Shown in pieces: positions 24,845-39,092 of a DNA stretch of 64,000 nt. The DNA lies in IMG/VR virus record IMGVR_UViG_3300042691_049879, positions 4,801 through 68,800 of that record; one strand, written 5' to 3'. Within the stretch, counting starts at the first letter, position 1. Every line of letters begins with the position of its first letter. Below the pieces are notes generated by a model. The model did no database searches, had not been told where the DNA came from, and saw only the letters and a program-made list of their open reading frames with translations. Both the position numbers and the translations under genes were made by a program. Source of the stretch: a virus.

Positions 24845-24920
24845 TAGGGTAGACAGGGCTCGAACCTGCAGTAATGTCCTCATCCCAAATGAGGCGACTT
24901 GCCAATTAGTCTACTACCCT
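24845..24920 (-). tRNA. tRNA-Pro(UGG)
   Basis: CCUCA-UUUGGGA-UGAGG. Confidence 0.88.
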
Positions 24921-24966
24921 ATTTTTCAAATTATGAAAGCTCGTTTGCTTCCTAAAGTTTTGACAC

Positions 24967-25064
24967 AAAAAAACCCGAATCTTTTTTATGGATTCGGGTG
25001 TGTTCTAGTTTGATATATATTTGTTTAACTTAACTAATCAATACTATTGTGAATTAACACACCC
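24967..25064 (-). promoter_or_regulatory. Attenuator 1 (terminator plus antiterminator) before tRNA operon 1
   Basis: Terminator CCCGAAUC/GAUUCGGG-U7 (24967-24998); GGGUGUGUU (25056-25064) can pair with AACACACCC (24996-25004). Confidence 0.8.
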
Positions 25065-25141
25065 ATACCATCCCAACGATACGCGGGACAAATCCCCGTC
25101 GCTGTCGGTCTAATATTCTTATATGTGTTAATTGTTTTCAT
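25034..25141 (-). CDS. Leader peptide 1 (MKTINTYKNIRPTATGICPAYRWDGMGVLIHNSID)
   Basis: 35-aa ORF between the TACATTTG promoter (25197-25204) and the terminator; codons match downstream tRNAs. Confidence 0.8.
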   Translation of the reverse strand: MKTINTYKNIRPTATGICPAYRWDGMGVLIHNSID

Positions 25142-25344
25142 TTTGTTTTTAGTTTAAATATAATTAAAAAATCTTTTTTCTAATTTTGTAACGTTGCAAA
25201 TGTAAGAAAATTACACAAAAAACAAAACATTTTTTTAATTTTTTTTTCACTTTTTTTATAAAGTGCTGATAATCAATAAGATATTTTTTAAAATTTTTTT
25301 TTTATTTTTCATAAAAAATATTAAAATAAAATATATTTATTTTT

Positions 25345-25773
25345 ATGAATAAGCAAGAGTTAAGAAAATTAATAAGAGAATCTTTTGGAAATGATTCTCA
25401 AATATATGTTACTGAAGGAATAGAAGTTGATGCATATTTAAGTTCTACAATTAATCCAGATGACTACTATACTAACAAAAGTAAAGCTACAATATATTGG
25501 ATTATTGATATGGAAAATAAAAGTTTTGGTATAAAAGAATTCTTTCCAGTAATAAAAAAAATAGATTTAAATTTAGAAATTTGGAGAGAAGAAAATCAAG
25601 AATACGAAACAATAAAAAAAGTATTTGATAATATAAGTGCAGCAGACGGAGGTACAATAGAAGATTTTAAGTTGACAATCACAAAAACATGTGATAGAGG
25701 TCATATTTATCCTACTGATTTATTGATGGATGAAGGAAATAAAACAATAGAAATAAGTTTTGATATGCCATAA
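25345..25773 (+). CDS. Hypothetical protein with ELRKLIRES tag
   Basis: TATTTAT at 25334. Confidence 0.65.
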   Translation: MNKQELRKLIRESFGNDSQIYVTEGIEVDAYLSSTINPDDYYTNKSKATIYWIIDMENKSFGIKEFFPVIKKIDLNLEIWREENQEYETIKKVFDNISAADGGTIEDFKLTITKTCDRGHIYPTDLLMDEGNKTIEISFDMP

Positions 25774-25879
25774 TTATTTGCCATGAAAAAGAAAGACGAA
25801 GAATTCGATGATTACGATTGGTTCAATGAACAAAGTATTTGAAGATACGGTTTAGGACCGTTATAGTTTCGGCTATACA

Positions 25880-25920
25880 GGCCATCTAAAGCTCGCTACT
25901 ATTAGATGGCCTTTTTTTTT
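25880..25920 (+). terminator. Intrinsic terminator
   Basis: ggccatctaa...ttagatggcc followed by a T-tract. Confidence 0.75.
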
Positions 25921-25946
25921 GATATTTATTAATATAATATACAAAC

Positions 25947-26630
25947 ATGTTAAAGGAAAATTACATAAAAAGATTAAAGGAATTAGCTGGTATTATTTCT
26001 GAAAATAATATAGAAGAAAAAAATGAATTAAATGATTTAATCTATAGTAATGAGGTATTTTTAAGTGAAAATGAAAAATTTAGAAAATACTTTAAAGGCA
26101 TACAAATAAACGACTATAAAAACAAAACATTTCCAGAAAATAATTCTGAAAAAACAAGAGAAGAATTATTGAAAATAAAAGCCCTAAAAGCAGATGAGGA
26201 ATTTATAAGAGAACATGATAATATATATTATGTATTTAAAAAATATTTTGAAGAAAACAATTTAGATTTTCCAAAACTTTTAGTTAAAGATTTAATAGAG
26301 GCTTCAAGATATTTCTTGATGAAACTTAAATATCATTATAAAAGACCAAGACCATATCAAATAGCAAAAAAGATGGATATAAACTTAAATTCAATTAGAC
26401 TTAGTTCGGCTAAATCTCCATCTTTTCCTTCTGGACACGCTTCTCAATCAAATTTAATAGCCTATGTGCTTTCTGATATGTTCCCAAAGCATGAAGACAA
26501 ATTGATGAAAATAGCAGACAATATCTCAAAAAGCAGAATGATGGCAAAAGTCCATTTTCCAAGCGATATAGAATATGGTGAAAAAATAGCAAAAGACCTA
26601 TTTAAACAATATAAGAAGAACAATAAATAA
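25947..26630 (+). CDS. PAP2-superfamily phosphatase / vanadium haloperoxidase-like protein
   Basis: KYHYKRPRP, SPSFPSGHA, SRMMAKVHFPSD. Confidence 0.85.
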   Translation: MLKENYIKRLKELAGIISENNIEEKNELNDLIYSNEVFLSENEKFRKYFKGIQINDYKNKTFPENNSEKTREELLKIKALKADEEFIREHDNIYYVFKKYFEENNLDFPKLLVKDLIEASRYFLMKLKYHYKRPRPYQIAKKMDINLNSIRLSSAKSPSFPSGHASQSNLIAYVLSDMFPKHEDKLMKIADNISKSRMMAKVHFPSDIEYGEKIAKDLFKQYKKNNK

Positions 26631-26666
26631 GAAAAAAAATAATATTTATCAATATAATATTTAAAC

Positions 26667-27110
26667 ATGAGAAAAGAAAAACTACGTATGAAAATGCTTT
26701 CAGGTATTATCACAGAAAGTGAATACAAAGCAAAATTAGAAGAAAATTATGATGCAAATTCTATTGGTTCAGAAATAGATGAGTGGATTGAAGCTAATAG
26801 TGATTATATATCAAAGTATAGTTTAGAAGATAAAGTAAAAGAATTATTAGGAATTGATTCTGAAATAACATCAACAGAAGAGATAGAAGAGGATAAAGGA
26901 GGGAGAATGTATGGTGAAAATTGGGACAAGAAATTGATTACAATTAAACTAAATGGTCAAGATTTAGTGAAAGTTTGGACAGATTCAAATGGAAGATTTG
27001 CTTTTGGAAAGAGTAGTATACATTTTGATGATTTGCCAAAAGATAAAATAGTTTCAGCACCTTATGGTGGTGGTGCTCGTTTTTATTTTGACAGAAGCTT
27101 ATTAAATTAA
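26667..27110 (+). CDS. Hypothetical protein with RMKMLSGIITE tag
   Basis: TATTTAT at 26643. Confidence 0.65.
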   Translation: MRKEKLRMKMLSGIITESEYKAKLEENYDANSIGSEIDEWIEANSDYISKYSLEDKVKELLGIDSEITSTEEIEEDKGGRMYGENWDKKLITIKLNGQDLVKVWTDSNGRFAFGKSSIHFDDLPKDKIVSAPYGGGARFYFDRSLLN

Positions 27111-27167
27111 CCTAAAAACGTGCCTTCTTCTGAAGCACCAAGACAAAAAAACCTAGAATTTCTAATT

Positions 27168-28184
27168 ATGAACAATAAAATTTTATTAGAACACGATAAT
27201 GTTATAGATGAAATTATTTCATTATTTGCATTAAATGAGGCTGGTATACCAGATAACCCTTCTGATACTTATGTGTGGGATATTGCAAAAGAAAAAGTAG
27301 AAAAGGCCACTAATAAAATTGATAATAAAGAAAGGGCTATTTTGTTTGTGGAAAAATTTTTACAAAAGGCAAAAATGTTGCCTAAAAAAATAAAGGTTAG
27401 ATTAACAAAGTATGTATTAACTGGTCTTTTAGGATTATTGTCAATGACAACAATCAATAACCTTTTAAATAACGAAGTTCCAGAAGTAAAAAACGACATA
27501 ATCAATCAACTTTCCGTTATAACAACAAATTTTGAAAAAGAAAAAAAAGATTATAAACAAGATAAAGAAGTTGAACAATCATATTATTTTAAAACTCCAA
27601 AAAAAGTTTCAGATAATTTGATAGAATTTTTAAAAAAAACAGAAGGTTATAGGTCAATAGGATATATTGTAAAATCGAATAATGGTAGAGACGATGGAAT
27701 GATAACGATTGGTCATGGACATGCGGAACCAAAAAGAAAATCAAAATACAAAGTTGGACAAAGAATCTCAAAAGAGGAAGCTGAAAAACTTTTGAGGCAA
27801 GACCTTAAAGATGCAGAAAAAGCAGTTAATGATATTTTTGAAAAATGGGACAAAGAAGGAATACCATATCAATTAGACCAGAATATGTATGATGCGATGG
27901 TTTCTATAGCGTTTAATAGAGGAAGAGGAAATTTATGGAACTCAGAATTTGTAGCATTAATTAAACAAGGTAAATATATAGAAGCTAAAGAAGAAATAAA
28001 AAATATGAGTAAACATAAATATGCAGAATTTCCTGGATTAAAAACTAGAAGATATGAAGAAGCGGAAATGTTTGGAAAAAATCTTGATAAAGTACTTGCT
28101 TTACTAAAAGACGTTTCTAAAAATAATAATACTATTTCTGAATCATATAAATTAAGACTCAAAACTTTAGCTGGCATTTTATAA
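27168..28184 (+). CDS. GH24 phage lysozyme domain protein, possibly virion-associated
   Basis: LKKTEG...TIGHGH...ISKEEAEKLL..DL...QNMYDAMVSIAFNRG...GLKTRRYEE; ATG at 27168 preferred. Confidence 0.85.
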   Translation: MNNKILLEHDNVIDEIISLFALNEAGIPDNPSDTYVWDIAKEKVEKATNKIDNKERAILFVEKFLQKAKMLPKKIKVRLTKYVLTGLLGLLSMTTINNLLNNEVPEVKNDIINQLSVITTNFEKEKKDYKQDKEVEQSYYFKTPKKVSDNLIEFLKKTEGYRSIGYIVKSNNGRDDGMITIGHGHAEPKRKSKYKVGQRISKEEAEKLLRQDLKDAEKAVNDIFEKWDKEGIPYQLDQNMYDAMVSIAFNRGRGNLWNSEFVALIKQGKYIEAKEEIKNMSKHKYAEFPGLKTRRYEEAEMFGKNLDKVLALLKDVSKNNNTISESYKLRLKTLAGIL

Positions 28185-28232
28185 ATAAAAACTATTTATA
28201 TAAAACAAAAACAAACACAAAAACAAACAATT

Positions 28233-28481
28233 ATGAAAAATTTTTTATTAAACATGTTAAGCTCTGAAGGAAAGACATCTTCTAAAAGATTTATTACTTT
28301 TCTAGCCTTTGGACTAATATCAATCGGCTTTTTAGTTGATTTATTTACCAATTTAACAATATCAGAACAAGTGTATTCAGGTGTTGAATATATAGTTATA
28401 GCTGGTCTTGGGTTTACTGCATCTGAAAATTTTGTTGGATGGAAAAGAGCATCAAAAGGAAAAAGTGATGTGGAGGGTTAA
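28233..28481 (+). CDS. Holin-like membrane protein (2 TM)
   Basis: SSKRF followed by two hydrophobic helices; adjacent to lysozyme. Confidence 0.55.
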   Translation: MKNFLLNMLSSEGKTSSKRFITFLAFGLISIGFLVDLFTNLTISEQVYSGVEYIVIAGLGFTASENFVGWKRASKGKSDVEG

Positions 28482-29337
28482 AGATTTATTTATAAATTTA
28501 TTTTTAAAAATTAGACTTTGGTATTTTGTTAAATTTAAGCCAAATAAATTTAACAATGTAATAAACAGCATAGAAAAAAATGGCTGGGAACTTACATTCA
28601 ATGATGAATTTGATAAAGGCGAATTGGACAGAACAAAATGGAGAACTGATAATTATTTTGGTCTTAGATATCACCCAGGTAACATAACAGAAAAAGGTAT
28701 AGCTCCAGATGTATATTTTGACGATGACTGTTTTGAATTTACAGATACAACAATGAAACAAATTGCAAAGAATGAACCTATTGATGTTAATTACATTGAT
28801 TGGAATGGTCGTGATTGGGGTAAATACACAATACCATATAGAGTTGCAATGATTGATAGTTCAAACAGTTTTTCTCAGAAATATGGTTATTTTGAAATTA
28901 GAAGTAAAGTAACGCCAGAACCTGGTAGTTGGCCAGCATTTTGGATGGTTTCTACAGATTTTTATCCTCCAGAAATTGACATATACGAAATATATACAGG
29001 AAGGAAGGGTGCGGCAAATTCTTTTACTTCAACTTTTCACTGGAAGGAGAGGCCTATAGAAGAATTGAAAAAGAAAATGAAAGCTTCAAGACATTGGACT
29101 ATGGATAATGCTAAAGATTTTCATTTATACGCTTTTGAATGGGACAATAAAAGTTTTAAAATTTACTATGATAATATTCTTGTTAGAATTTATTCTAATC
29201 CAGAAGCTGTTAAATTTTTTAATTTCCCAATGCACATTATAATTAATAATTCAATACACATTGAACAAGGGCCAGAAAATGCTAAATATCCAAATTATCA
29301 TGAAGTTGATTATGTTAGAGCCTATAAAAAGAAATAA
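28468..29337 (+). CDS. Glycoside hydrolase family 16
   Basis: WELTFNDEF, YGYFEIR, WPAFW, PEIDIYE catalytic motif, FHLYAFEW, VDYVRAY. Confidence 0.88.
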   Translation: MWRVKDLFINLFLKIRLWYFVKFKPNKFNNVINSIEKNGWELTFNDEFDKGELDRTKWRTDNYFGLRYHPGNITEKGIAPDVYFDDDCFEFTDTTMKQIAKNEPIDVNYIDWNGRDWGKYTIPYRVAMIDSSNSFSQKYGYFEIRSKVTPEPGSWPAFWMVSTDFYPPEIDIYEIYTGRKGAANSFTSTFHWKERPIEELKKKMKASRHWTMDNAKDFHLYAFEWDNKSFKIYYDNILVRIYSNPEAVKFFNFPMHIIINNSIHIEQGPENAKYPNYHEVDYVRAYKKK

Positions 29338-29387
29338 TTTAAAAAAAATAAATAATATTTATATAAAAATACAAAATATAACTAATC

Positions 29388-31223
29388 ATGAAAATAACTA
29401 AATCTCAATTAAAACAAATAATAAAAGAAGAAGCTTCAAGATTTGTTCACATACAAACACTAAAAGAAAGAAGAGAGGAAATAATTAAAGAACTTAATTT
29501 ATTAAATGAGTCTGATGAACTATTAGAAGAAGGATTAAAAGGATGGATTACTGCTGGACTTTTGTCTTTGGCAGCAATAGGAGGAGGGGCAAAAGTTTAT
29601 CAATTAGAAAAAGAACATGCTAAAAATGAAAAAATAGAACAAAAATATTACAATGATTTTTTATCGGAAGCACTTCAGAAAATGTCTAAAAGTGAATTAG
29701 AAGATTTAGGTATTGACATAAATGGTAAAACAAATTATTTATACGTTTCTGGCAATGACAGTCAAGAAGAATTACAATCAATATTTTCAAATTATGCCAG
29801 AAATTATATTATGTCAAACCCAAAAGAATTTGGATTAGATTCATCTACTGGCAAAATTAAATGGTTAAATCAAGACAATTATACAATAAAAGAAAATGAA
29901 CAAATGCCTTCAGGATTTGTTCACATACAAACACTAAAAGAAAGAAGAGAGCAAATAATAAGAAAAATTAATTTACTAAATGAAGAAGAAGTGGGAAATA
30001 AATCTTTATTGGAGCAAATAAAAGACTTACTTAAAGCTAATAAATTTTTGGCAGATAAAGCTGACTTTATAACTGAAGAAATGGTAAAAGATGAAGGTAA
30101 TTCTATATATTTACAATTTCCAAATGAACTAGACTCTCCTCATATAAAAAAACATTTTGATAAATCAGGTCCTGCATCAGCTTGGTCAATAAGTAAAGAA
30201 TCTGTAAGTGATTTGATTTTAAAAACAATAAAAACAAAACCAACAAAGTCCGTTCAAGAAGGGCCAACATTTAAATATAAATGGCTTAATGTAAATTCTG
30301 GTAAAAATATAGGATTTGATTCTTTGAAAAAAGTTAGCGAAAAAGTAGAGCAAGTTGTTGACTTAGAACCGTTTGGAATGGTTGATAGAGTTAAAGATTG
30401 GAATCAAATAAGTAAAGTTGTAAGTGATAACAATTATGAGCTAGTAACAAAAAACGAACAACCATATACTGAAGAAGATTTAAATAATAATGAACCTGCT
30501 TTTATAAAACAAAATATAGGAGTTATTTATGGTGATAAAACAGAAAATCCAACAAGTATTTTTAATTTAATTTTAGCTAAAATTGGTGAGGTTAACAATA
30601 AACCAGTACTAACTTTAATGACCGTATTTCCTGGAATTAATCCTGTTGATAACTCTGGTAATGATATTACCAATAAAAAAGATTTAATAAAACATGGATA
30701 TGCTTTAATCAAATCAAAGTCAATAAATGAATCAATAAGAAAAATTGTTAGAGAAGGATTTTTAAATCTTTTAAAAGAAAATATTTATGATAATATTGAA
30801 AACATTTCTGATAAACATTGTGGTGGCGAATTTAATTGGTGGAACCTTATGGAAGATATTAAATTAGCATTAAAAGGACATTTTGAAAACTATTCTATAA
30901 CTGAACTACCTGATACTGATGATTCATGCGGCTTTAAAATAACTAAAGATGACCGTTCAGTTCCTTTATATATTAAATATGATGATGATAGAGGTGAAAA
31001 TATAATTAAAATTATATGTAAAGATTCTAATGGAACTTATGAATATGAAATGCTTTCTTGGGAAAATACTGGCGGAGAATCTAGAGGATTTGACTCATTC
31101 GGACATGAAAGTTCATCATATCAAGAAGAAGGTGTTGAATGTGATGTTAAAAAAAGTAATATTCAAGAAGCTATAACTGAAATTGAAGAATATTTAAATA
31201 AAAAATACGATAGTATAAAATAA
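29388..31223 (+). CDS. Modular probable virion-packaged protein
   Basis: MKITKSQLKQIIKEE tag; FVHIQTLKERRE.II...NLLNE occurs twice; TATTTAT at 29356. Confidence 0.65.
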   Translation: MKITKSQLKQIIKEEASRFVHIQTLKERREEIIKELNLLNESDELLEEGLKGWITAGLLSLAAIGGGAKVYQLEKEHAKNEKIEQKYYNDFLSEALQKMSKSELEDLGIDINGKTNYLYVSGNDSQEELQSIFSNYARNYIMSNPKEFGLDSSTGKIKWLNQDNYTIKENEQMPSGFVHIQTLKERREQIIRKINLLNEEEVGNKSLLEQIKDLLKANKFLADKADFITEEMVKDEGNSIYLQFPNELDSPHIKKHFDKSGPASAWSISKESVSDLILKTIKTKPTKSVQEGPTFKYKWLNVNSGKNIGFDSLKKVSEKVEQVVDLEPFGMVDRVKDWNQISKVVSDNNYELVTKNEQPYTEEDLNNNEPAFIKQNIGVIYGDKTENPTSIFNLILAKIGEVNNKPVLTLMTVFPGINPVDNSGNDITNKKDLIKHGYALIKSKSINESIRKIVREGFLNLLKENIYDNIENISDKHCGGEFNWWNLMEDIKLALKGHFENYSITELPDTDDSCGFKITKDDRSVPLYIKYDDDRGENIIKIICKDSNGTYEYEMLSWENTGGESRGFDSFGHESSSYQEEGVECDVKKSNIQEAITEIEEYLNKKYDSIK

Positions 31224-31242
31224 AATTAATAATAATCAATTT

Positions 31243-31284
31243 AAAAAGCCCACTAAAAAAGCCCACTAAAAAAGTGGGCTTTTT
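31243..31284. terminator. Bidirectional terminator with duplicated arm
   Basis: gcccactaaaaaa twice, then gtgggcttttt. Confidence 0.75.
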
Positions 31285-31286
31285 AT

Positions 31287-31793
31287 TTAATTAACAATTC
31301 CAACATAAACTTTCCAGGAATCATGAAAAGAGTTTAATCTTTCTATGTATGACAAATAATTAGGCCTAAAAGGTTTATGATGCATTGTCAAATTGTATTC
31401 CTTTAAAAAATCATCTACTAATAAATCTCCTTTTTTAACATTACATTTTCCGCAACAAGTAACAAGATTATTCCAAGTATTTTGTCCTCCTTTTGACCTT
31501 GGATGAACATGGTCTATAGTTAATTTTTCGCTAGAACGACAATATATGCATTTAAAATCATCTCTTCTAAAAACATTTTCTCTTGTTAAGTTAACCTTTC
31601 TAAATGGAACTGAAACATATCTTAATAAACGTATAACTGTAGGTCTTTGGTATTTTGTTGTTGAAGTAACTATTGGTCTATCAGGTATATGTTCTACTAC
31701 TTCAGCCTTACCTTTAAAGACCAATTTAAAACCTCTTGACAATGTTGTTACATTTATAGGTTCATAAGCACTATTTAAAACTAATACCTTCAT
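31287..31793 (-). CDS. HNH endonuclease (McrA-like)
   Basis: VLVLN.AYEPI, RD...CIYC, TIDHVHPRSKGG..TW.NLVTCCGKCN..K. Confidence 0.9.
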   Translation of the reverse strand: MKVLVLNSAYEPINVTTLSRGFKLVFKGKAEVVEHIPDRPIVTSTTKYQRPTVIRLLRYVSVPFRKVNLTRENVFRRDDFKCIYCRSSEKLTIDHVHPRSKGGQNTWNNLVTCCGKCNVKKGDLLVDDFLKEYNLTMHHKPFRPNYLSYIERLNSFHDSWKVYVGIVN

Positions 31794-31872
31794 ATAATTT
31801 ATTTTATAATTATAAATAATTATTTTTTTTTATTTAAAAACTATTCAATTTATTATTTTTTTTATTTTAAAG

Positions 31873-31956
31873 TAGCGGAGGTCGGACTCGAACCGACGGG
31901 GTCTTTCGACACAAGGTTATGAGCCTTGCCAGCTACCAACTACTTACTACTCCGCA
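31873..31956 (-). tRNA. tRNA-Met(CAU), initiator-like, with long variable arm
   Basis: 1:72 mismatch, CAAGG-CUCAUAA-CCUUG, extra GUC-GAAA-GAC arm. Confidence 0.75.
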
Positions 31957-31964
31957 ATATATTG

Positions 31965-32038
31965 TAGCGAGAGACAGAATCGAACTGTCGACCTTGGGGT
32001 TATGACTCCCACGCTCTAGCCAACTGAGCTATCTCGCC
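31965..32038 (-). tRNA. tRNA-Met(CAU), elongator
   Basis: GGCGAGA acceptor; loop GUCAUAA. Confidence 0.82.
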
Positions 32039-32215
32039 ATAAATTAAAGCCTACATTAAGTAAGCTTTAATTTTTTTAAGAAGGATTTAATTTTTTTTAT
32101 TCTTCTTATTTTTCTGATTTTATTTGCTCGTTCAAAAATTAAACGAACTTTTTTATCAATCTTTCCTTCTCTCTCTGACACACTTAACACTTCTCTCATA
32201 TCTATTTGTTTTTAT

Positions 32216-32548
32216 TTATTCTTTTTTATCTGGAAGCTTTGAATCCAATTCATTTATTAACCAATATGGACTTCCACCTTCTACTTAATGTATTTCGTTG
32301 AAACCATTTTCTTTAGTAATTAAAGACTCTTCTTCAGTTATTGAGCCAGAATGTTTTCCTGCACCTTTTTTATTTTCAATATTACCAGTACTAGGATTAT
32401 AACTGCCCCAATCAGCCATTCTATCATTTCCTATTGTTTCAATAAAATATTTTTTACCAGTTCTATAAGAAACAACAATCTCTCTTCCAGTTTCATCTCT
32501 ATTAATCAAAAAGTTTTTTAATACTTCTTCTTTTATATTTCTTTTCAT
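32216..32548 (-). pseudogene. Phage hypothetical protein interrupted by an in-frame TAA
   Basis: Frame continues after ...NEIH* as VEGGSPYWLINELDSKLPDKKE*. Confidence 0.45.
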
Positions 32549-32559
32549 TTTAAGTCATT

Positions 32560-32751
32560 TTAAAGTTCAAACGAGTGTGATTTGCCACACTCGTTACACT
32601 TTACGTCAATGTAAGTGTAAGACCAGTCTTCGTAATAATTACCTTGACTGATATATGGATTTTGAATTTCTTGTCTTATTTTTTTATTTTCTGTTGGACA
32701 AGTAAACTCAATTTCAATCACATGTCTAATTGTCGTACATCCTTTTAACAT
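32560..32751 (-). CDS. Small Zn-ribbon protein
   Basis: CPTE...CNECG; ATG at 32751 (the track start overlaps tRNA-Gly). Confidence 0.6.
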   Translation of the reverse strand: MLKGCTTIRHVIEIEFTCPTENKKIRQEIQNPYISQGNYYEDWSYTYIDVKCNECGKSHSFEL

Positions 32752-32772
32752 GACTTTTAATTTTAGTTTTTG

Positions 32773-32846
32773 AGCAAGAGATGGGATTCCAACCCACGAC
32801 CCCAACCTTGGCAAGGTTGTGCTCTAAGCAGCTGAGCTACTCTTGC
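32773..32846 (-). tRNA. tRNA-Gly(GCC)
   Basis: CAACC-UUGCCAA-GGUUG. Confidence 0.9.
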
Positions 32847-32855
32847 TTATTGTTG

Positions 32856-32929
32856 CTCTCCCGCCTGGGCTCGAACCAGGGACCCTCTGATTAACAGTCA
32901 GATGCTCTAACCAACTGAGCTACAGGAGA
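32856..32929 (-). tRNA. tRNA-Asn(GUU)
   Basis: UCUGA-CUGUUAA-UCAGA, G73. Confidence 0.93.
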
Positions 32930-32947
32930 TTGTATTTACATTATTTG

Positions 32948-33023
32948 CGGTCCCACACGGATTCGAACCGAGCTGAAATCCTCCGTGACAGGGAGGTGGC
33001 CACACCAAGCAGCCCCTGAGACC
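32948..33023 (-). tRNA. tRNA-Asp(GUC)
   Basis: CCUCC-CUGUCAC-GGAGG, G73. Confidence 0.88.
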
Positions 33024-33042
33024 TTTTTTTTTACAAAAAGTG

Positions 33043-33116
33043 GGTGAATAGTCGGAATCGAACCGACGACACAAGGAACCACAATCCTATGCTCTGCCTA
33101 CTGAGCTATATCCACC
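33043..33116 (-). tRNA. tRNA-His(GUG) with G-1
   Basis: Loop UUGUGGU; G-1:C73. Confidence 0.9.
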
Positions 33117-33164
33117 ATATTAAAACTTACTTTTTTCACATTAATCGGAATTTAGATTGTGCTT

Positions 33165-33239
33165 TTTACCTTGTTGGAGTCGAACCAACATTCTCTCGGC
33201 TAACCGCCGAGCGCCCTACCAATTTACTACCAAAGGTAA
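33165..33239 (-). tRNA. Atypical tRNA-like RNA, GUU anticodon with G33
   Basis: UUACCUU/AAGGUAA acceptor, CUCGG-CGGUUAG-CCGAG, perfect T-arm, unpaired D-arm. Confidence 0.55.
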
Positions 33240-33281
33240 GTAAGTTTTTTATTTTAAATTCAAAGAACGTTTTCTTTTTTG

Positions 33282-33355
33282 TTCCCCCGACAAGATTCGA
33301 ACTTGTGGCCCTTCCATTAAAAGTGGAATGCTCTAACCTGCTGAGCTACGAGGGA
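33282..33355 (-). tRNA. tRNA-Lys(UUU)
   Basis: UUCCA-CUUUUAA-UGGAA. Confidence 0.88.
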
Positions 33356-33363
33356 ATAATTTG

Positions 33364-33436
33364 TGCGCCCAGCAAGATTCGAACTTGCGACCCCCGCATT
33401 AAAAGTGCGGTGCTCTACCAACTAAGCTATGAGCGC
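33364..33436 (-). tRNA. tRNA-Lys(UUU), second divergent copy
   Basis: CCGCA-CUUUUAA-UGCGG. Confidence 0.9.
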
Positions 33437-33493
33437 ATTTTGATTTGGGATTCGCTCACACTTATTAGTAGAGTGAATCCCTAAAGTTTATAT

Positions 33494-33748
33494 TTAAATT
33501 TCTTTTTCATTTTCTTCAATTTCTTTTAATACTTCTTTTAAAGCTTCTCTTTTAATTTTATTTCTTTCTTTTCTGTATTTGTAATATGAACACATTTCAC
33601 AACTACATGGTGTCGATGTAGATTTCATCCAATAATAAAATTCTCCATCATTAAAAAATTGTTTAACTCTCTTTTTAACTTTTTTAGCTAAATCTTTCCT
33701 TCTTTTTGCTCTTTTGTAATTTTTCATTTTTACCTCAGTTTTTGCCAA
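33494..33748 (-). CDS. Small basic protein (PCSCEMC motif)
   Basis: TSTPCSCEMCS; true start uncertain. Confidence 0.6.
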   Translation of the reverse strand: MAKTEVKMKNYKRAKRRKDLAKKVKKRVKQFFNDGEFYYWMKSTSTPCSCEMCSYYKYRKERNKIKREALKEVLKEIEENEKEI

Positions 33749-33810
33749 TTACTCTTGAGCCAAGTAACTAGCTTGTTATATGAGGTATCTAATTCTACAA
33801 TTTTTCATTT

Positions 33811-34023
33811 TTATATTTTTAAAGTCACTAACACATAAGCATTTACATACTTACCGTCATTTATAAATTTTAGTTCATTATAAACATATCCTTTTTTAAC
33901 AGCCATTTTTTCAAGTTCATCATAATAATCATCGAAGAACTCTTCAAAATCTTGTTTTTTTATTTTCTTTAGAAATATCAAACGTTCTTCGTCTGGTATT
34001 TCATTTATTTTTACTTTAGGCAT
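33811..34023 (-). CDS. Hypothetical protein
   Basis: ORF within tRNA operon 2. Confidence 0.55.
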   Translation of the reverse strand: MPKVKINEIPDEERLIFLKKIKKQDFEEFFDDYYDELEKMAVKKGYVYNELKFINDGKYVNAYVLVTLKI

Positions 34024-34048
34024 AATATTACCTTTTAGTTTTTAAGTG

Positions 34049-34137
34049 CGGAGAAGAGAGGATTCGAACCTCCGATACCAGTTTCCCAGTATGCCTTCTT
34101 AGCAGGAAGGTGCTTTTAGCCACTCAGCCACTTCTCC
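34049..34137 (-). tRNA. tRNA-Ser(GCU)
   Basis: Loop CUGCUAA, long variable arm. Confidence 0.92.
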
Positions 34138-34213
34138 AAAACGCTACCCCGTAAGTAGCGAGGGCAATGTACGGCCTTGCCAAGCCAGAGTATTTACCCT
34201 TTGGGTAAACCAG

Positions 34214-34302
34214 AGGAGAGAGAGGGATTCGAACCCCCGTTACCTTTTACGGTAAGTCTGTTTTCAAGACAGGTGCAATAAGCCAGACTCTGCCATCTCT
34301 CC
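34214..34302 (-). tRNA. tRNA-Ser(UGA)
   Basis: Loop CUUGAAA, long variable arm. Confidence 0.9.
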
Positions 34303-34317
34303 ATTATTCAAAGAACT

Positions 34318-34824
34318 TTAAATTTCAACTTTCCACATAGGGACAAATCCTGCATATCTATCATTTACAACATCTTCCCAGTGGTCTAGCCAACCATCCA
34401 TTCCAAATTGTTGTTGACCTGGAGCTAAGAACATATCTTTTTCTTTAACCCATTTAGCTTGTCCACTAAATCTTGCAACTCTCTTTGCCTCTTCATTGCA
34501 ATCATACCAAGCTCCATCTTCAAGTTGTTCTTTTGGAATAGCTATTTTTAATAAATCTAAATCTCTTTTTCTATTATGTTCAACTATTTGAACAGCTTTT
34601 TCCCAAAGTTCAGCTCCAGTAATATTTTTCCTAATTGTTTCAATTTTTTTTAAAACCTCGTTTGGTTTTTCTCCTTTATCTATTAATTCTTTTATTTTGT
34701 TGTTCCAAGTTTCTTCATTATCCATTTCTACAAACTTTTCAACTTTCTTGTTGGCATAATATTCACCATAATTTGCGTTTATAAGTCTATCGTACCATTC
34801 TTTATATTTTCCTTTAAATTCCAT
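34318..34824 (-). CDS. Hypothetical protein, first gene after attenuator 2
   Basis: 168 aa ORF starting 16 nt after the terminator U-tract. Confidence 0.65.
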   Translation of the reverse strand: MEFKGKYKEWYDRLINANYGEYYANKKVEKFVEMDNEETWNNKIKELIDKGEKPNEVLKKIETIRKNITGAELWEKAVQIVEHNRKRDLDLLKIAIPKEQLEDGAWYDCNEEAKRVARFSGQAKWVKEKDMFLAPGQQQFGMDGWLDHWEDVVNDRYAGFVPMWKVEI

Positions 34825-34839
34825 AACTCAATTTTTTTC

Positions 34840-34925
34840 AAAAAAAAACCCGAACTTTTTCGGTTCGGGTGTCTTATTTCTTTTCAGTTATATTATTAAC
34901 TTTTAAAAGTTGCTAAAGCACACCC
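34840..34925 (-). promoter_or_regulatory. Attenuator 2 before tRNA operon 2
   Basis: Terminator CCCGAAC/GUUCGGG-U9 (34840-34869); GGGUGU(G)CUU can pair with AAGACACCC. Confidence 0.75.
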
Positions 34926-35025
34926 TTATAAACCCTGATTTGTTATCATCATGATTCTTCTTTACATTCCCACTCATTTTCGAAGTGGAAACCAAAGTTG
35001 CGATATGTGTACTTGTAAGTTGCAA
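34903..35025 (-). CDS. Leader peptide 2 (MQLTSTHIATLVSTSKMSGNVKKNHDDNKSGFIRVCFSNF; TTG start, or ATG at 34977)
   Basis: ORF between the TACATTTG promoter (35080-35087) and the terminator; S/K/M/G/N/H/D-rich core. Confidence 0.72.
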   Translation of the reverse strand: MQLTSTHIATLVSTSKMSGNVKKNHDDNKSGFIRVCFSNF

Positions 35026-35257
35026 AATTTTATTTTTTATAATTGTTAATAAATATATCTGTTTTTTTAAAACCCGATACAAATGTAAAACTTTTTTTTT
35101 AATTTACAATAATTATAACGACTTTTTTTTAAAAAAATTACAAAAAAAATTAAAAAAAAACTATAAGTTATTGATTTACAGTATTTTATAATAATTATTT
35201 TTTTTGTATAAATTCATAATTTAAAAGCATTTAAAAAAAAAGTTAATATTTATTATT

Positions 35258-35758
35258 ATGGAAAAAGAAAATTTAAGACATTTAATAAGACAAATTATAA
35301 AGGAGTCTTTCAATAATGTAGAAGAAGGTTCTGGAAGTCATTCTGACGCTAAAGAGATGAGAAAAACTCTTAAATGGATTAGTAAAAATCTTGAAGGAAT
35401 AAAAATAGAAGAAGTTGGAGACGGCCATAGAATTTGTCCACCAATAGACAAATCAGATGAATGTTATACTGTGCACAGAGGGGGAAAAGGAATATATGAT
35501 TTATATAGATTTTTAGCAAAAGCATATAATGTAAATAAGCATGATATAGAATACGCAGTTAGCTCAAATAGACCATTAAATTTAACGTCTGTTAATCCTG
35601 AAGAATTAGCAATTATGAAAAAAGTTAATTTGTCTGGGAAGGATTGGTATATAGATGAAAAGGAACAAAGATTAATAATGGTGAAAAATTTAAATAAAAT
35701 TAAAAATTTTGATGATTTAGATTTTGATGAATACGAAAAAGTAATTGAAGCATTATAA
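35258..35758 (+). CDS. Hypothetical protein with LRHLIRQIIKES tag
   Basis: TATTTAT at 35247. Confidence 0.65.
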   Translation: MEKENLRHLIRQIIKESFNNVEEGSGSHSDAKEMRKTLKWISKNLEGIKIEEVGDGHRICPPIDKSDECYTVHRGGKGIYDLYRFLAKAYNVNKHDIEYAVSSNRPLNLTSVNPEELAIMKKVNLSGKDWYIDEKEQRLIMVKNLNKIKNFDDLDFDEYEKVIEAL

Positions 35759-35792
35759 AAAATGCCCGAATTACTTCGGGCATTTTCTTTTT
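35757..35792. terminator. Bidirectional terminator
   Basis: aaaatgcccgaa-ttac-ttcgggcatttt. Confidence 0.8.
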
Positions 35793-35793
35793 A

Positions 35794-35882
35794 GAGATTA
35801 TTCGAACTTCTCAAAAACCTTACCTAAAATAACATTTAATACTGTGAGGATTATTCGAACTTCCTCAAAACCTTACCTAGAA
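35794..35882 (-). repeat. Two ~36-nt direct repeats, each with a T-loop-like hairpin
   Basis: gagattattcgaacttctcaaaaaccttacctaaaa / gaggattattcgaacttcctcaaaaccttacctagaa. Confidence 0.75.
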
Positions 35883-35891
35883 ACTGATGTG

Positions 35892-35965
35892 TGGTCCCAG
35901 CAGGGCTTGAACCTGCGACCCCCTGATTATGAGTCAGGTGCTCTGACCAGCTGAGCTATAGGACC
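35892..35965 (-). tRNA. tRNA(CAU), probably Ile2 (lysidine-modified, reads AUA)
   Basis: GGUCCUA acceptor, CCUGA-CUCAUAA-UCAGG, Ile2-like body. Confidence 0.8.
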
Positions 35966-35970
35966 AAAAA

Positions 35971-36155
35971 TGGCTATCTGTTGATGCAAACAATTTACCT
36001 TGACTAGTATTTGGTAAACCCGTTAAGTCTATCATCTTTTATCTATATTCTACCCTATGTATAGGGGTGACATTAACAGAAACTCCTCACACTAGATATC
36101 CTCACACGGATTTGTGCCCTGGTAGAGCTAGTGATATGTTTGGAGCTTATCGCCA
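35971..36155 (-). ncRNA. Unidentified structured RNA (~185 nt)
   Basis: End pairing UGGCGAU/AUAGCCA; stems CAAACA/UGUUUG, CACUAG/CUAGUG, CCCUAU/AUAGGG, UUUACC/GGUAAA. Confidence 0.55.
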
Positions 36156-36180
36156 ATTTTTCAAAAAACTTTTTTTAAAA

Positions 36181-36309
36181 TGATATATAGACGTGCAAGG
36201 TAATGGTTTGCAGCCCGTATTAACACGTAACTTTTCTCTGATGAGTGTGTATCTGCAAAGCTACACAACTGCCTCCATACGAATCAGAAATAAGCGACTC
36301 TATATATCA
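36181..36309 (-). ncRNA. Unidentified structured RNA (~130 nt) with potential pseudoknot
   Basis: 11-bp closing stem UGAUAUAUAGA/UCUAUAUAUCA; loop UUUGCAG complementary to CUGCAAA. Confidence 0.55.
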
Positions 36310-36315
36310 TTCTTG

Positions 36316-36399
36316 TGGTATAGGGTGGAATCGAACCACCGACAAGTCAGACGTACATTACTGCCCTTGCCCCAGGTTTGCTAGCTATTTTACTATACC
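36316..36399 (-). ncRNA. tRNA-like RNA with expanded anticodon region
   Basis: GGUAUAG/CUAUACC-A acceptor, GGUGG-UUCGAUU-CCACC T-arm, 19-nt loop in the anticodon arm. Confidence 0.6.
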
Positions 36400-36410
36400 A
36401 TATATTAAAA

Positions 36411-36499
36411 TTCAATGGTGGGATTCGAACCCTAAAGAGTCAACATTAAACTCACCCTCCTGTACGTCCTTGCCAAACAAGATAACTTTCCTCATTGAA
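36411..36499 (-). ncRNA. tRNA-like RNA, non-canonical
   Basis: UUCAAUG/CAUUGAA ends, GGG-UUCGAAU-CCC T-loop hairpin. Confidence 0.55.
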
Positions 36500-36562
36500 T
36501 TTTTTAAATTTTAGGGGGAACAATGTTAATTTCCCTAGTACAGGTGCTCCTAAAATTTATTG

Positions 36563-36636
36563 TACACCCACCAGGATTCAAACCTGGGACCTATTCATTA
36601 GAAGTGAATTGCTCTATTCAGCTGAGCTATGGGTGC
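36563..36636 (-). tRNA. tRNA-Arg(UCU)
   Basis: AUUCA-CUUCUAA-UGAAU. Confidence 0.92.
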
Positions 36637-36731
36637 ATTTTAATCTTTCAAAGAACTTTCATTGTTTATTGTAACGACAAATGTAAAACTTTATTACAAT
36701 AAAACAAAAAAAAATTAATTTTTTATTTTTG

Positions 36732-36803
36732 TACTCTAGAAGGGAATTGAACCCTCACCTTCATATTATAAGTATGATGCTCTGACCACTGAGCTACTAG
36801 AGT
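36732..36803 (-). tRNA. tRNA-Ile(UAU)
   Basis: UCAUA-CUUAUAA-UAUGA. Confidence 0.88.
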
Positions 36804-36839
36804 ATTGTTTCTTTCACAAAAATAGTCAATAATTGTGAC

Positions 36840-36913
36840 AAAAAAAAAGGTCTAGACAATTCTGCCCAGACCCTTTAGTGTTTTAATTATTAAAATTTAC
36901 ACAATATCTAGGC
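36840..36913 (-). promoter_or_regulatory. Attenuator 3 before tRNA operon 3
   Basis: Terminator GGUCUGGGC/GUCUAGACC-U9 (36840-36872); GCCUAGAU (36906-36913) can pair with GUCUGGGC. Confidence 0.8.
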
Positions 36914-36971
36914 TTGAACAAGAATTTCTTCTTATCCTTTTAGCTATTGATATTGAGTTAATTTTTTTCAT
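36897..36971 (-). CDS. Leader peptide 3 (MKKINSISIAKRIRRNSCSSLDIV)
   Basis: Codons ATA TCA ATA GCT AAA AGG ATA AGA AGA directly upstream of tRNA-Ile(UAU), Arg(UCU) and Ile2. Confidence 0.8.
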   Translation of the reverse strand: MKKINSISIAKRIRRNSCSSLDIV

Positions 36972-36977
36972 ATTTTA

Positions 36978-37139
36978 TTAATCTTTTACGATAACTGACC
37001 AAACAGTACCAACCAAAGCAACTACACCACCAACTACTTCAGTAACTAGTGTTTCATCCACTAAACCTTTCATCACTAAAAAACCACCAACGAAAGTAAG
37101 TGTGTGACGAATAATTCCTAAAACTTTTTCTTTATTCAT
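36978..37139 (-). CDS. Small 2-TM holin-like protein (MNKEKVLGIIRHTLTFVGG...GTVWSVIVKD)
   Basis: 53 aa, below ORF cutoff; TATTTAT at 37164-37170. Confidence 0.7.
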   Translation of the reverse strand: MNKEKVLGIIRHTLTFVGGFLVMKGLVDETLVTEVVGGVVALVGTVWSVIVKD

Positions 37140-37196
37140 AATATTTCTTTTAAATTACTTATTATAAATATAGAGAAAAAAACAAAAAAGTAAAGT

Positions 37197-39092
37197 TTAA
37201 TCATATAAAGTCTTTAATAAATCGCTAAAAATACTTTCATCTTTAACTTCAACTTTTTGCTCAAATTCAGTTCCATCAAGCACTTTAGATAAAATTGAAG
37301 ATTTGTGATTTAACATTCTATCTATATCTTCATCTATTGTATCTTGACAAATAAGTCTTATAATTTGCACCTTATCCGCCTTTGATGAAGCTCTATGTAT
37401 TCTATCTTCTGCTTGTTCTCTATCTGCACTTGTCCATGGTTGGTCAATAAATATAGATATACTTGCAGAAGTTAAAGTAATTCCTACACCAGCCGCTCCT
37501 ATAGTTCCAGAGAATACTTTAGTTTTTTCATCATTCATAAACTTTTCAACAGCTTCGTCTTTTTTGTTTGAATTAATATCTCCATTAAAAACTACAGCAG
37601 CATCACCAAATCTTTCTGCAACTTTATAAGATATATCTTTATATTGTGTGAATACAACAACTTTTTCATCTCCATCTATAATATCTTGTATAAAATCAAA
37701 AGCTCTTTTCATTTTTATTTCAGACGTAAAATGTTTTAACTTTTGAATTCTGGTTAAATGATTCATTCTATTATCTTCACCTGGTTTATCGGATTGATGT
37801 TCTTCTTTTATTCCTTTCTTTATTTTATTATATTCCCTTAATTCTATTTCATTTAATTCTATTGGAATTGCTGTATATGTTTTTTCTGGGAGATGTTTTA
37901 AAATATCCTTTTTAAGTCTTCTTAAGAAATAAGGAGAAATTTTTTCAAACAACTCTTCCAGATTAGAAGCACCATTATAATCCCATCCAAAATTATTTTT
38001 TTCAGCCGCACAATACTTTACACCAAAAGCGTGTGAATTTGACCATTCCTCTGGATATAAGAAGTTTAATAAAGAGAAAAACTCGTATGGTCTACTTTTT
38101 ATCGCTGTACCAGTAAGTAAAATTCTATGTGGTATATCTTTAAAATTTTTCTTTACCAACTTAGTCCTATCTGCAGAATCATTTTTTATATAATGAGCTT
38201 CATCCATTATTAAAATTTCATAATCTTTTGGATTTATTGTTATTCCTTCAGAGTCATTTGTAAAGGTTATATTTTTTGTTGCCCTTGAAGTTACCATATT
38301 TCTAACTCCACATTTAGGACAAGTCTTATCTTTGTATCTTTTTTTATCATTCCTTTCTTTCCAGCCACAAAAGACATTCTTACATGTGTGTGACATTTCA
38401 ATCGTTATATATGAGCCTAAAGAATCATATCCTATTATATCAAACAAACTTTCTTCTTTAATATAATTTATTTTACCAGACTTTTTTGTTGGTTTCCATT
38501 TATAGACAAAAGCTTTTTCATGTGTAAATTTTAAAATTTCACTTCTCCAATTAAGCCTTAAGTTTGCTGGACAGATTATTAACGTTTTCTTTTTTTTCCA
38601 AGCCGCATATGTCATTGCAGAATTTGTTTTTCCTACTCCTGGCTGGTCTCCAAGTAAGGCTCTACCATTACAAGTGTCAAAAAAAACTGCAGCCTGTTTT
38701 TGATATTCATATGGTTCTATTTTCATGAAGGAAAAATCAATACCAGAAACATCTATATTTTCAGACTTCATAGATAAAGATTTCATTAAAGATTCTTGTC
38801 TTTTTATGAACTTCATCCTTAATTCCTCAACTTCTTCATTTGTTAAGTTTGTGAACTTAAAAGGTATACCATTATCCTTAATAAAGCCTATTACTTTACC
38901 TATATAGCCTTCGGAAACTACTCTATACCAACTTTCATAACCACTTCCATCAGGTCTTTGCATAAAGTCCATCTTTATTTGTCTTTGGTCTTCTGGGAAG
39001 GATTTTATAAAATCGCTTAGACTTTTCCTGTAATTATACTCTAATTTGTAATTTGACTTTAACTTCGTTATTATAACCTTATTATCATCCAT
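37197..39092 (-). CDS. SNF2-family (HARP/SMARCAL1-like) helicase with Zn-ribbon insertion
   Basis: DQPGVGKT, DEAH, LTGT, GVGITLT, QAEDRIHR; CKNVFC...CPKC insertion. Confidence 0.9.
   Translation of the reverse strand: MDDNKVIITKLKSNYKLEYNYRKSLSDFIKSFPEDQRQIKMDFMQRPDGSGYESWYRVVSEGYIGKVIGFIKDNGIPFKFTNLTNEEVEELRMKFIKRQESLMKSLSMKSENIDVSGIDFSFMKIEPYEYQKQAAVFFDTCNGRALLGDQPGVGKTNSAMTYAAWKKKKTLIICPANLRLNWRSEILKFTHEKAFVYKWKPTKKSGKINYIKEESLFDIIGYDSLGSYITIEMSHTCKNVFCGWKERNDKKRYKDKTCPKCGVRNMVTSRATKNITFTNDSEGITINPKDYEILIMDEAHYIKNDSADRTKLVKKNFKDIPHRILLTGTAIKSRPYEFFSLLNFLYPEEWSNSHAFGVKYCAAEKNNFGWDYNGASNLEELFEKISPYFLRRLKKDILKHLPEKTYTAIPIELNEIELREYNKIKKGIKEEHQSDKPGEDNRMNHLTRIQKLKHFTSEIKMKRAFDFIQDIIDGDEKVVVFTQYKDISYKVAERFGDAAVVFNGDINSNKKDEAVEKFMNDEKTKVFSGTIGAAGVGITLTSASISIFIDQPWTSADREQAEDRIHRASSKADKVQIIRLICQDTIDEDIDRMLNHKSSILSKVLDGTEFEQKVEVKDESIFSDLLKTLYD

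Follow-up and report, generated by a model that had tools for sequence, protein, structure and literature searches.

A 64-kb window of the 68.8-kb single-contig virus record IMGVR_UViG_3300042691_049879 (G+C 29%) carries, on its minus strand, a 24-codon open reading frame (ORF), here called leader 3, which is followed by an intrinsic terminator and then by a tRNA-Ile(UAU) gene. We propose that leader 3 is a ribosome-mediated attenuator (attenuator 3) that senses the decoding of AUA and of AGA/AGG (AGR) codons and gates tRNA-Ile(UAU), and we put the probability of this reading at about 0.6. The proposal builds on sequence parts, alternative pairings computed in silico, conservation, and co-occurrence, and from these we infer leader translation, ribosome stalling, and read-through. 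An initial annotation of the stretch had already read it as an attenuator; that reading gains support from a complete set of alternative hairpins (1:2, 2:3, and 3:4), from conservation in a diverged relative, and from strict co-occurrence of the parts of the module.

Regulatory Codons and Alternative Folds of Leader 3

Codons 7-15 of leader 3 read ATA tca ATA gct aaa AGG ATA AGA AGA, that is, three ATA, one AGG, and two AGA, or six of nine positions. The same count within a leader of 24 amino acids stood in the initial annotation and can be read directly at 36971-36897. Taken over 61 long ORFs of the phage, ATA, AGA, and AGG together make up 7.6% of codons (44 ATA and 27 AGA per 1000), and three of 411 small ATG ORFs (15-60 amino acids), leader 3 among them, reach six cognate codons per 14-codon window. 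Leader 3 is nontrivial because its codon cluster sits in an ORF that ends 21 nt before a terminator (hairpin proper at 36876-36845, 14 pairs and a 4-nt loop), which in turn precedes a cognate tRNA.

Attenuators of the trp type combine a translated ORF that holds regulatory codons, the alternative pairings 1:2, 2:3, and 3:4, a terminator, and a stop codon placed to mask region 2. The whole 141 nt from the leader 3 ATG through the U-run is predicted to fold at −39 kcal/mol (z −5.6), and, folded piecewise, it can adopt three hairpins that exclude one another in the manner of the trp leader. Hairpin 1:2, the 5' strand of which carries the regulatory codons, reaches −19.9 kcal/mol (z −5.3), with 0 of 200 shuffles as good; the 2:3 fold reaches −14.6 kcal/mol, which 2 of 200 shuffles equal, and the terminator 3:4 reaches −18.6 kcal/mol (z −5.3), which none of 200 equals. 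Region 2, GCCUAGAU (36913-36906), can pair over 8 bp, two of them G·U, with GUCUGGGC (36871-36864) in the terminator 5' arm. An 8-bp pairing with this arm had been foreseen and is borne out, with GCCUAGAU starting 13 nt after the last AGA.

Given this 13-nt gap, region 2 should be free under a ribosome stalled in codons 7-15, and because it ends 6 nt ahead of the stop codon (36899-36897), a terminating ribosome, with the usual footprint size, should cover it. The modeled spacing is that of classical trp-leader logic, including superattenuation when the leader is not translated. The element thus described has the sequence-level features of an attenuator, namely, an ORF, cognate codons, a terminator, an exclusive antiterminator, and a 1:2 hairpin, the pairings being those computed in silico.

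Conservation of the Module in Related Phages

Querying viral contigs with the adjacent helicase returned 25 loci, 13 of which are close and were compared for the module. Three near-identical loci (L001, L002, and L009) have a helicase 83% identical to that of the window and carry the module directly after it, with no holin gene. The leader of these loci reads MKKYNSISIIRRIRIESCPCLDIV; 14 of its 75 nt are changed, and its start, its stop, and its length of 24 codons are kept. It contains four ATA, two AGA, and one AGG, with regulatory codons at seven of the nine core positions, and two of the changes relative to the window fall within the codon set (codon 15 AGA to ATA, codon 11 AAA to AGA). 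When 14 random substitutions were simulated 200,000 times under neutrality, the ORF was retained in 12% of runs, the ORF with at least six regulatory codons in 2.1% (P 0.021), and the ORF with at least seven in 0.66% (P 0.0066). The encoded peptide has 17 of 24 residues identical in L001, with 7 replacements versus 2 synonymous changes, and falls below the adjacent helicase (83%) in conservation.

The L001 sequence refolds into 1:2 (z −3.0), a 10-bp 2:3 (−16.8), and 3:4. From the window to L001, seven of the eight core 2:3 pairs are unchanged and one goes from C-G to U·G; 13 of the 14 terminator pairs are unchanged and one is a wobble change; and the 27 window pairs of 1:2 comprise 17 unchanged, 3 changed on one side, 1 compensatory, and 6 broken, L001 refolding differently here. 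L001, L002, and L009 have the 24-nt terminator core, GGTCTGGGCAGAATTGTCTAGACC, without a change. A DNA variant in run X15 shows a single leader change, codon 20 AGC to TGC, which adds a 2:3 pair.

The 13 close loci, 12 of them informative and representing few independent lineages, divide by their first tRNA. All three with tRNA-Ile(tat) have both leader and terminator, all nine with Arg(tct) or Glu(ttc) in first place have neither a leader nor a terminator-like hairpin after the helicase, and one locus is rearranged. Because none of the nine loci without tRNA-Ile(UAU) has a terminator, this terminator is not the generic end of a helicase operon. As far as these loci indicate, the leader is gained and lost as one module together with the terminator and tRNA-Ile(UAU). 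Further copies were sought with parts of the module. The 5' half of the tRNA-Ile matched five stretches in viral contigs (three from the L001 group and two unrelated tRNA-Met genes) and no further module, a combined anticodon-arm and T-arm pattern matched one stretch in metagenome contigs, which lies on a contig as long as that of L009 (79,404 nt), and the terminator core found no loci in viral contigs beyond L001, L002, and L009. A blastn search of GenBank phages with leader and tRNA gave tRNA-level matches in cyanophages only, and in tblastn with the helicase no cultured relative exceeded 31% identity.

Unrelated phage tRNA-Ile(UAU) genes were surveyed in viral contigs with the pattern CTTATAA-N12-14-GGTTCGAATCC. 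Among the 80 listed of at least 120 matches (L041-L120), 68 carry tRNA-Ile(tat), and 58 of these 68 have it alone or at the head of its array. After leaving out 10 loci in which the gene is not first in the array and 3 with less than 260 nt upstream, 55 could be analyzed. A terminator-like hairpin lies no more than 120 nt upstream in 3 of these 55 loci among the matches listed, and in none of them does a small ORF end at such a hairpin; as positive controls, the window, L001, and attenuator 1 are all detected by the survey script. Because none of the 55 loci shows a small ORF at an upstream terminator, the arrangement is not a generic byproduct. The AUA leader is a clade-specific invention and no general property of phage tRNA-Ile(UAU) genes.

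Sister Leaders and Codon Choice

ARAGORN finds 23 tRNA genes in the window, all on the minus strand and in three blocks, the third of which is headed by leader 3. Upstream of each of the first two blocks stand TTACATTTG, a small ORF, and a terminator that has an antiterminator (attenuators 1 and 2). Leader 1, MKTINTYKNIRPTATGICPAYRWDGMGVLIHNSID, precedes Pro, Lys(CUU), Ala, Tyr, Gly, Trp, Ile(GAU), Arg(ACG), Thr, and Cys tRNAs, and leader 2, MSGNVKKNHDDNKSGFIRVCFSNF, precedes Ser, Ser, Lys, Lys, His, Asp, Asn, and Gly tRNAs. Leader 1 is the best of the 411 small ORFs for its 10 tRNAs, as leader 2 is for its 8. The best 14-codon scores versus blocks A/B/C are 12/7/1 for leader 1, 4/11/2 for leader 2, and 2/6/6 for leader 3.

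Homologous leaders in three relatives, G001 and G003 (helicase ∼80%) and G008 (47%), track local tRNA sets that differ from those of the window. A G001 block has no tRNA-Lys(CUU), and its leader has no AAG, a codon confined to leaders that this tRNA follows. In G008, the leader of a block with Gly, Met, Val, Pro, Ile, Asp, Ala, Thr, and Cys tRNAs has added Val, Met, and Asp codons, and that of a block with Phe, Ser, Asn, His, and three Lys tRNAs contains NNTHKHFNKSSFSNKS, with 15 of 16 consecutive codons (4-19) cognate. Homologues of attenuators 1 and 2 occur at L032, L009, L033, and L034, with helicase identity down to 47%. That leaders of the attenuator 1/2 type are functional in this clade has strong comparative support. 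Because these sister leaders match their downstream tRNAs across the clade, the prior for attenuator 3 is raised.

Attenuator 3 resembles its sisters in the order of leader, antiterminator, terminator, and tRNAs and in its use of cognate codons, and leader 3 begins with MKKIN where leader 1 begins with MKTIN, a likeness limited to the first five codons. The switches differ. Attenuators 1 and 2 share GGGUGUG / CACACCCG(A/G)A, whereas attenuator 3 pairs GCCUAGAU with GUCUGGGC and has another terminator; the former stand behind TTACATTTG, the latter behind a TATATTTA-type box or the holin gene. Unlike attenuators 1 and 2, attenuator 3 would strictly gate one tRNA, and it is found in two lineages only.

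The sister leaders also allow codon choice to be compared. Three homologous leaders that precede tRNA-Ile(GAU) have 10 ATT and no ATA, whereas two leaders of the leader 3 type have 7 ATA and 4 ATT. This contrast has a Fisher p of 0.004 pooled over homologous, and hence non-independent, leaders, and of 0.17 for leader 1 versus leader 3 in the window alone. CGT and CGC, which are less than 6% of phage Arg codons, are present in both leaders preceding tRNA-Arg(ACG), occur once each in two G008 leaders for which ARAGORN finds no tRNA-Arg in the fetched region, and are absent from leaders of the leader 3 type. We consider isoacceptor-level tuning of leader 3 to be likely on these comparisons. The description of leader 3 as the cleanest isoacceptor-level match of the three attenuators holds in the pooled comparison with the ATT-only leaders; it does not hold as an excess over genome bias or in the window by itself.

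Locus Layout, Candidate Promoters, and Proposed Gating

Completeness ratings are 18-27% for relatives of 41-88 kb and 81-91% for those of 212-291 kb, and from these ratings the record is probably a fragment of a 250-300 kb jumbo phage. The features of the third-block locus are collected in Table 1. The holin stop codon lies 6 nt before the leader 3 ATG, and the holin gene is absent from the L001 lineage. After tRNA-Arg(UCU), the block continues with two tRNA-like elements, an RNA of ∼325 nt, tRNA(CAU), and a palindromic hairpin. In the acceptor stem of tRNA(CAU), as drawn by ARAGORN, C4 pairs with G69 and C5 with G68, pairs that we take to be TilS determinants of E. coli tRNA-Ile2; tRNA-Ile2 is an AUA reader after lysidine modification. 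The tRNA-Arg(UCU) gene of L001 is split by a group I intron (6298-6493; RF00028, 60.9 bits), as are those of L002 and L009, and the window copy is intron-less.

Table 1. Features of the Proposed Attenuator 3 Locus and the Two Sister Attenuators
Feature	Position	Strand	Remarks
SNF2-type helicase gene	39092-37197	minus	upstream end of third-block locus
promoter-like TATATTTATA box	37163-37172	minus	23 nt upstream of holin start
holin gene (Phage_holin_10), 53 amino acids	36978-37139	minus	PF23987, E 4.4e-17
leader 3 ORF, 24 codons + TAA	36897-36971	minus	MKKINSISIAKRIRRNSCSSLDIV
regulatory codon core, codons 7-15	36927-36953	minus	5' strand of hairpin 1:2
hairpin 1:2 (predicted anti-antiterminator)	36892-36965	minus	−19.9 kcal/mol
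region 2, GCCUAGAU, codons 20-22	36906-36913	minus	putative antiterminator 5' strand, partner 36871-36864
intrinsic terminator (3:4)	36840-36876	minus	14-bp stem, GAAU loop, nine-U run
tRNA-Ile(UAU)	36731-36803	minus	ARAGORN; RF00005, 75.3 bits
promoter-like TTACATTTG box	36678-36686	minus	ahead of tRNA-Arg(UCU)
tRNA-Arg(UCU), AGA/AGG reader	36562-36636	minus	ARAGORN, Rfam
tRNA(CAU), possibly tRNA-Ile2, last tRNA of block	35891-35965	minus	ARAGORN
palindromic terminator-like hairpin closing third block	35759-35786	unassigned	last feature of the block
attenuators 1 and 2	25141-25034 and 34977-34903	minus	shared GGGUGUG / CACACCCG(A/G)A switch

Two kinds of promoter-like boxes occur around the tRNA blocks. 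TATATTTAWA is found 10 times in the window versus 4.0 expected, a number that 2 of 100 shuffles reach, and at five of the ten an ORF, such as the holin gene or leader 1, starts 10-40 nt downstream (examples of the sites are 7072-7081, 17684-17693, 19612-19621, 25153-25162, and 37163-37172). Boxes that resemble it precede genes in the distant relatives L016-L018, L023, and L024. TATATTTAWA is a candidate second promoter class beside TTACATTTG, which occurs three times in the window, always on the minus strand and ahead of a tRNA block. Boxes of the TAnnTTTG type may point to a Bacteroidota host. The holin match and the TATATTTATA box at 37172-37163 agree with the initial annotation, in which the leader follows a holin-like gene driven by a TATTTAT-type box, and L001 carries TATATTTAAA 9 nt before its leader ATG. 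The TATATTTATA box is likely to be the start of the leader 3 transcript, judging from these motifs.

The TTACATTTG-type box before tRNA-Arg(tct) and the TCGTTA that follows it are kept in relatives without the attenuator. This agrees with the earlier suggestion that the box could allow attenuator-independent expression from tRNA-Arg(UCU) onward and leave only tRNA-Ile(UAU) strictly gated. Comparing the window with L001 revealed no conserved promoter between the terminator and tRNA-Ile(UAU); because of this, and of the conserved box before tRNA-Arg(UCU), tRNA-Ile(UAU) alone would be wholly dependent on read-through. The AGR reader and the possible second AUA reader would receive an additional, non-exclusive input from the attenuator. 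A contig from an RNA library (run X17) spans 36486-36636, which covers tRNA-Arg(UCU) and its 3' hairpin. Neither run X17 nor run X20 has a contig over leader 3, the terminator, or tRNA-Ile(UAU); these data are contigs only and are uninformative on expression or its absence.

Proposed Mechanism

In the mechanism that we propose, transcription would enter from the holin promoter region or, in the L001 lineage, from the TATATTTAAA box before the leader, and a ribosome would translate the 24 codons of leader 3. When AUA and AGA/AGG are decoded quickly, the ribosome would reach the stop codon and mask region 2, GCCUAGAU, the 3:4 hairpin would form, and RNA polymerase would halt at the nine-U run, ahead of tRNA-Ile(UAU). 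When a tRNA that reads AUA or AGR is scarce, a stall in codons 7-15 would melt 1:2 and leave region 2 free to pair with the terminator 5' arm (2:3), and the polymerase would then read into tRNA-Ile(UAU). Read-through would extend to tRNA-Arg(UCU), the two tRNA-like RNAs, the ∼325-nt RNA, and tRNA(CAU). Without translation, 1:2 would form and sequester region 2, and termination would follow. The tRNA product would relieve the stall and so close a negative feedback loop.

In PMC3575796, an unmodified UAU tRNA-Ile did not discriminate between AUA and AUG on E. coli ribosomes, and E. coli IleRS charged UAU-anticodon tRNA-Ile poorly. On the first of these results, tight gating as a guard against AUG misreading is plausible. 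A wider picture, which we offer tentatively, is that the phage runs a multi-channel, codon-resolved tRNA homeostat, with its tRNAs divided among blocks that are each sensed separately. The channel of leader 3 would be tuned to the minor-codon readers: the AUA/AGR leader would release the unmodified-U34 tRNA-Ile(UAU), which can misread AUG on an unadapted ribosome, only while AUA decoding is limiting. The phage would in this way satisfy a heavy AUA demand (44 per 1000 codons) at low mistranslation.

Evidence against the Proposal and Alternative Explanations

Several observations weigh against attenuation by leader 3 as proposed. In the 61 long ORFs, ATA accounts for 55% of all Ile codons and AGA for 81% of all Arg codons; because these are majority codons, the codon choice within leader 3 is not above genome bias. 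A six-frame scan of the 68.8-kb genome finds four loci with at least 6 of 9 ATA/AGA/AGG codons versus a mean of 1.6 in 100 shuffles, so that the cluster by itself is only mildly unusual. The module is known from two lineages plus the near-identical X15 variant, and because there are only two lineages, covariation support is thin (1 compensatory pair, 6 of 27 pairs of 1:2 broken). In the survey described above, none of the 55 loci of unrelated phages has such a leader. The TATATTTA-type box, which precedes the holin gene in the window and the leader in L001, is a candidate promoter by motif, and transcription-translation coupling in the host is assumed. Sensing of AGR codons would exert only partial control of the AGR reader because tRNA-Arg(UCU) has its own promoter. 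Charging of tRNA-Ile(UAU) by the host is open to question, given the poor charging by E. coli IleRS in PMC3575796. Finally, a promoter that bypasses the terminator might be seen in TATTTTTG, which lies at 36824-36817, upstream of tRNA-Ile(UAU) and past the terminator; we set this candidate aside, as TANNTTTG occurs 102 times versus 117 expected and the site reads TGTTTTTG in L001 and is not conserved.

Another account would have a plain terminator of the helicase/holin unit, a small ORF that arose by chance in an A-rich spacer, and a tRNA-Ile(UAU) supplied by leak-through or a weak promoter. The terminator does lie 100 nt after the holin gene, and this account would also draw on the four loci of equal codon density and on the presence of TATTTTTG. 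We nevertheless think it unlikely: L001 retains leader and terminator without a holin gene, a terminator is missing behind this helicase gene in all nine related loci that do not carry tRNA-Ile(UAU), the ORF and its regulatory codons outlast 14 substitutions (p 0.007-0.02), hairpin 1:2 and the 2:3 complementarity would be unexpected, and TANNTTTG is at chance frequency in a box that is not conserved. It is improbable, too, that leader 3 belongs to a real leader-peptide attenuator that is not specific for codons or isoacceptors and that responds instead to Ile/Arg charging or to a general slowing of ribosomes, as a translation-stress sensor whose ATA and AGA codons reflect codon bias. With the codon usage given above, three ATA among three core Ile codons are expected with p ∼0.17, leader 3 also holds two ATT, and the window-only contrast with leader 1 has the same p of 0.17. 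What argues for specificity is the ATT-only makeup of the tRNA-Ile(GAU) leaders (10:0) versus 7 ATA to 4 ATT in the leader 3 type (pooled p 0.004), the presence of CGT/CGC in both tRNA-Arg(ACG) leaders and never in the leader 3 type, and the L001 substitutions, which stay in the codon set.

The remaining two explanations dispense with the ribosome as sensor or with sensing altogether. The strong, conserved folding, in a neighborhood rich in unusual structured RNAs, could reflect a structured RNA switch read by a protein or by uncharged tRNA, in the manner of a T-box, or a signal for tRNA-precursor processing. We give this a slim chance only, since an untranslated element would need neither the conserved frame, start, and stop nor the within-set codon changes. 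No Rfam family fits the leader/terminator element at E <0.05, and T-box (RF00230) has no match at E up to 1 in 22000-38000; a match to L20_leader (28 bits versus a cut-off of 58.7, E 0.055) was rejected as a terminator-like artifact. That the 24-residue peptide is itself functional, for example in a membrane-active or regulatory role and expressed together with the holin, is very improbable. It is basic, and its ORF is translationally adjacent to the holin gene in the window, but only 17 of 24 residues are kept in the close relative, with 7 replacements versus 2 synonymous changes, and the L001 copy has no linkage to a holin gene.

Other RNAs in and near the tRNA Blocks

The third block contains further candidate RNAs on the minus strand. 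The stretch 35973-36298, which adjoins a tRNA-like element (36316-36399) and tRNA(CAU) and has no Rfam family at E up to 1, is matched exactly by whole contigs of 324 and 326 nt with the same ends in metatranscriptome runs X17 and X20, which come from different studies. It may be a stable processed RNA of an unknown kind inside the gated block. The two tRNA-like elements of the block (36300-36560), missed by default ARAGORN and by Rfam, have acceptor-like ends and TTCGA T-loops. A permuted transfer-messenger RNA (tmRNA) over 36502-36070, called by ARAGORN at very permissive settings with an atypical tag, is unsupported, the Rfam tmRNA models being silent. Between tRNA(CAU) and the closing hairpin, at 35800-35885, a ∼27-nt unit that reads ATTCGAACTTC.TCAAAA.CCTTACCTA on the plus strand is present as two direct copies.

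The first block is similarly furnished, again on the minus strand. Within the operon behind attenuator 1, a match to GOLLD RNA at 23885-24369 (RF02032, 144.8 bits with a gathering score of 150, E 5e-39) embeds tRNA-Lys(CUU). A tRNA-like RNA of ∼126 nt at 23667-23792, between tRNA-Ala and tRNA-Tyr and not called by ARAGORN, has a 7-bp acceptor stem, a T-arm, and large insertions. At the end of the block, an RNase P-like RNA (22223-22471; best match archaeal RF00373, 54 bits with a cut-off of 84, E 6e-13) adjoins the gene of a YqeY-like protein (22894-22487, PF09424).

Significance and Comparison with Known Systems

Phage tRNA genes are usually regarded as constitutive codon-usage patches, and AUA, AGA, and AGG are rare codons in E. 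coli. If the attenuator reading of leader 3 is true, phages gauge how fast individual codons are decoded and produce tRNAs as they are needed, and the trp/his attenuation paradigm, one of the oldest in regulation, would extend to the decoders themselves. On the tentative homeostat picture, which takes in the sister leaders, transcription attenuation would serve to regulate tRNA genes by the speed of their own codons. Leader 3 is a compact test case, with one leader, two codon families, a three-hairpin switch, and a single tRNA that appears strictly gated. It also bears on the tolerance of an unmodified UAU-anticodon tRNA-Ile, and synthetic circuits could use it as a natural component for monitoring how well a given tRNA is supplied.

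As far as we have searched, control of tRNA genes by leader-peptide attenuation is unpublished: no published account of it was found in a search with subscription journals outside its coverage. The text of PMC2965389 has no mention of tRNA genes, tRNA operons, sites upstream of tRNA, or Bacteroidetes. The nearest published case of inducible supplementary tRNAs in our search, the trn operon of Anabaena sp. PCC 7120 (PMC8421152 and PMC10272220), is like leader 3 in that its supplementary tRNAs are silent by default and induced on impaired translation; unlike leader 3, it is under promoter control by repeats and the repressor TrcR. Neither paper on this operon speaks of attenuation, of a leader peptide, or of a terminator.

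T-box riboswitches share with the proposed switch a transcription attenuation that reports the state of a specific tRNA. They bind uncharged tRNA directly and need no translation, whereas leader 3 has a conserved ORF. The closest designs are those of trpL, hisL, pheL, leuL, and the multivalent thrL and ilvL, with which leader 3 has its leader ORF, hairpins, and stop-codon placement in common. These amino-acid-operon attenuators regulate biosynthetic enzymes, whereas leader 3 would regulate first tRNA-Ile(UAU) and then other RNA genes; it is also phage-borne and carries codons of two amino acids, at the level of the minor-codon readers (AUA and AGR). Because its product is a tRNA, the signal of leader 3 would be tRNA supply for particular codons and not amino-acid supply, and the feedback would act on the decoder itself. 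In the pheM leader of E. coli pheST, an aminoacyl-tRNA synthetase is attenuated through stalling at its own cognate codons. Both pheM/pheST and leader 3 thus concern components of the translation machinery, with a cellular synthetase protein as the target of the former and a viral tRNA gene as the proposed target of the latter.

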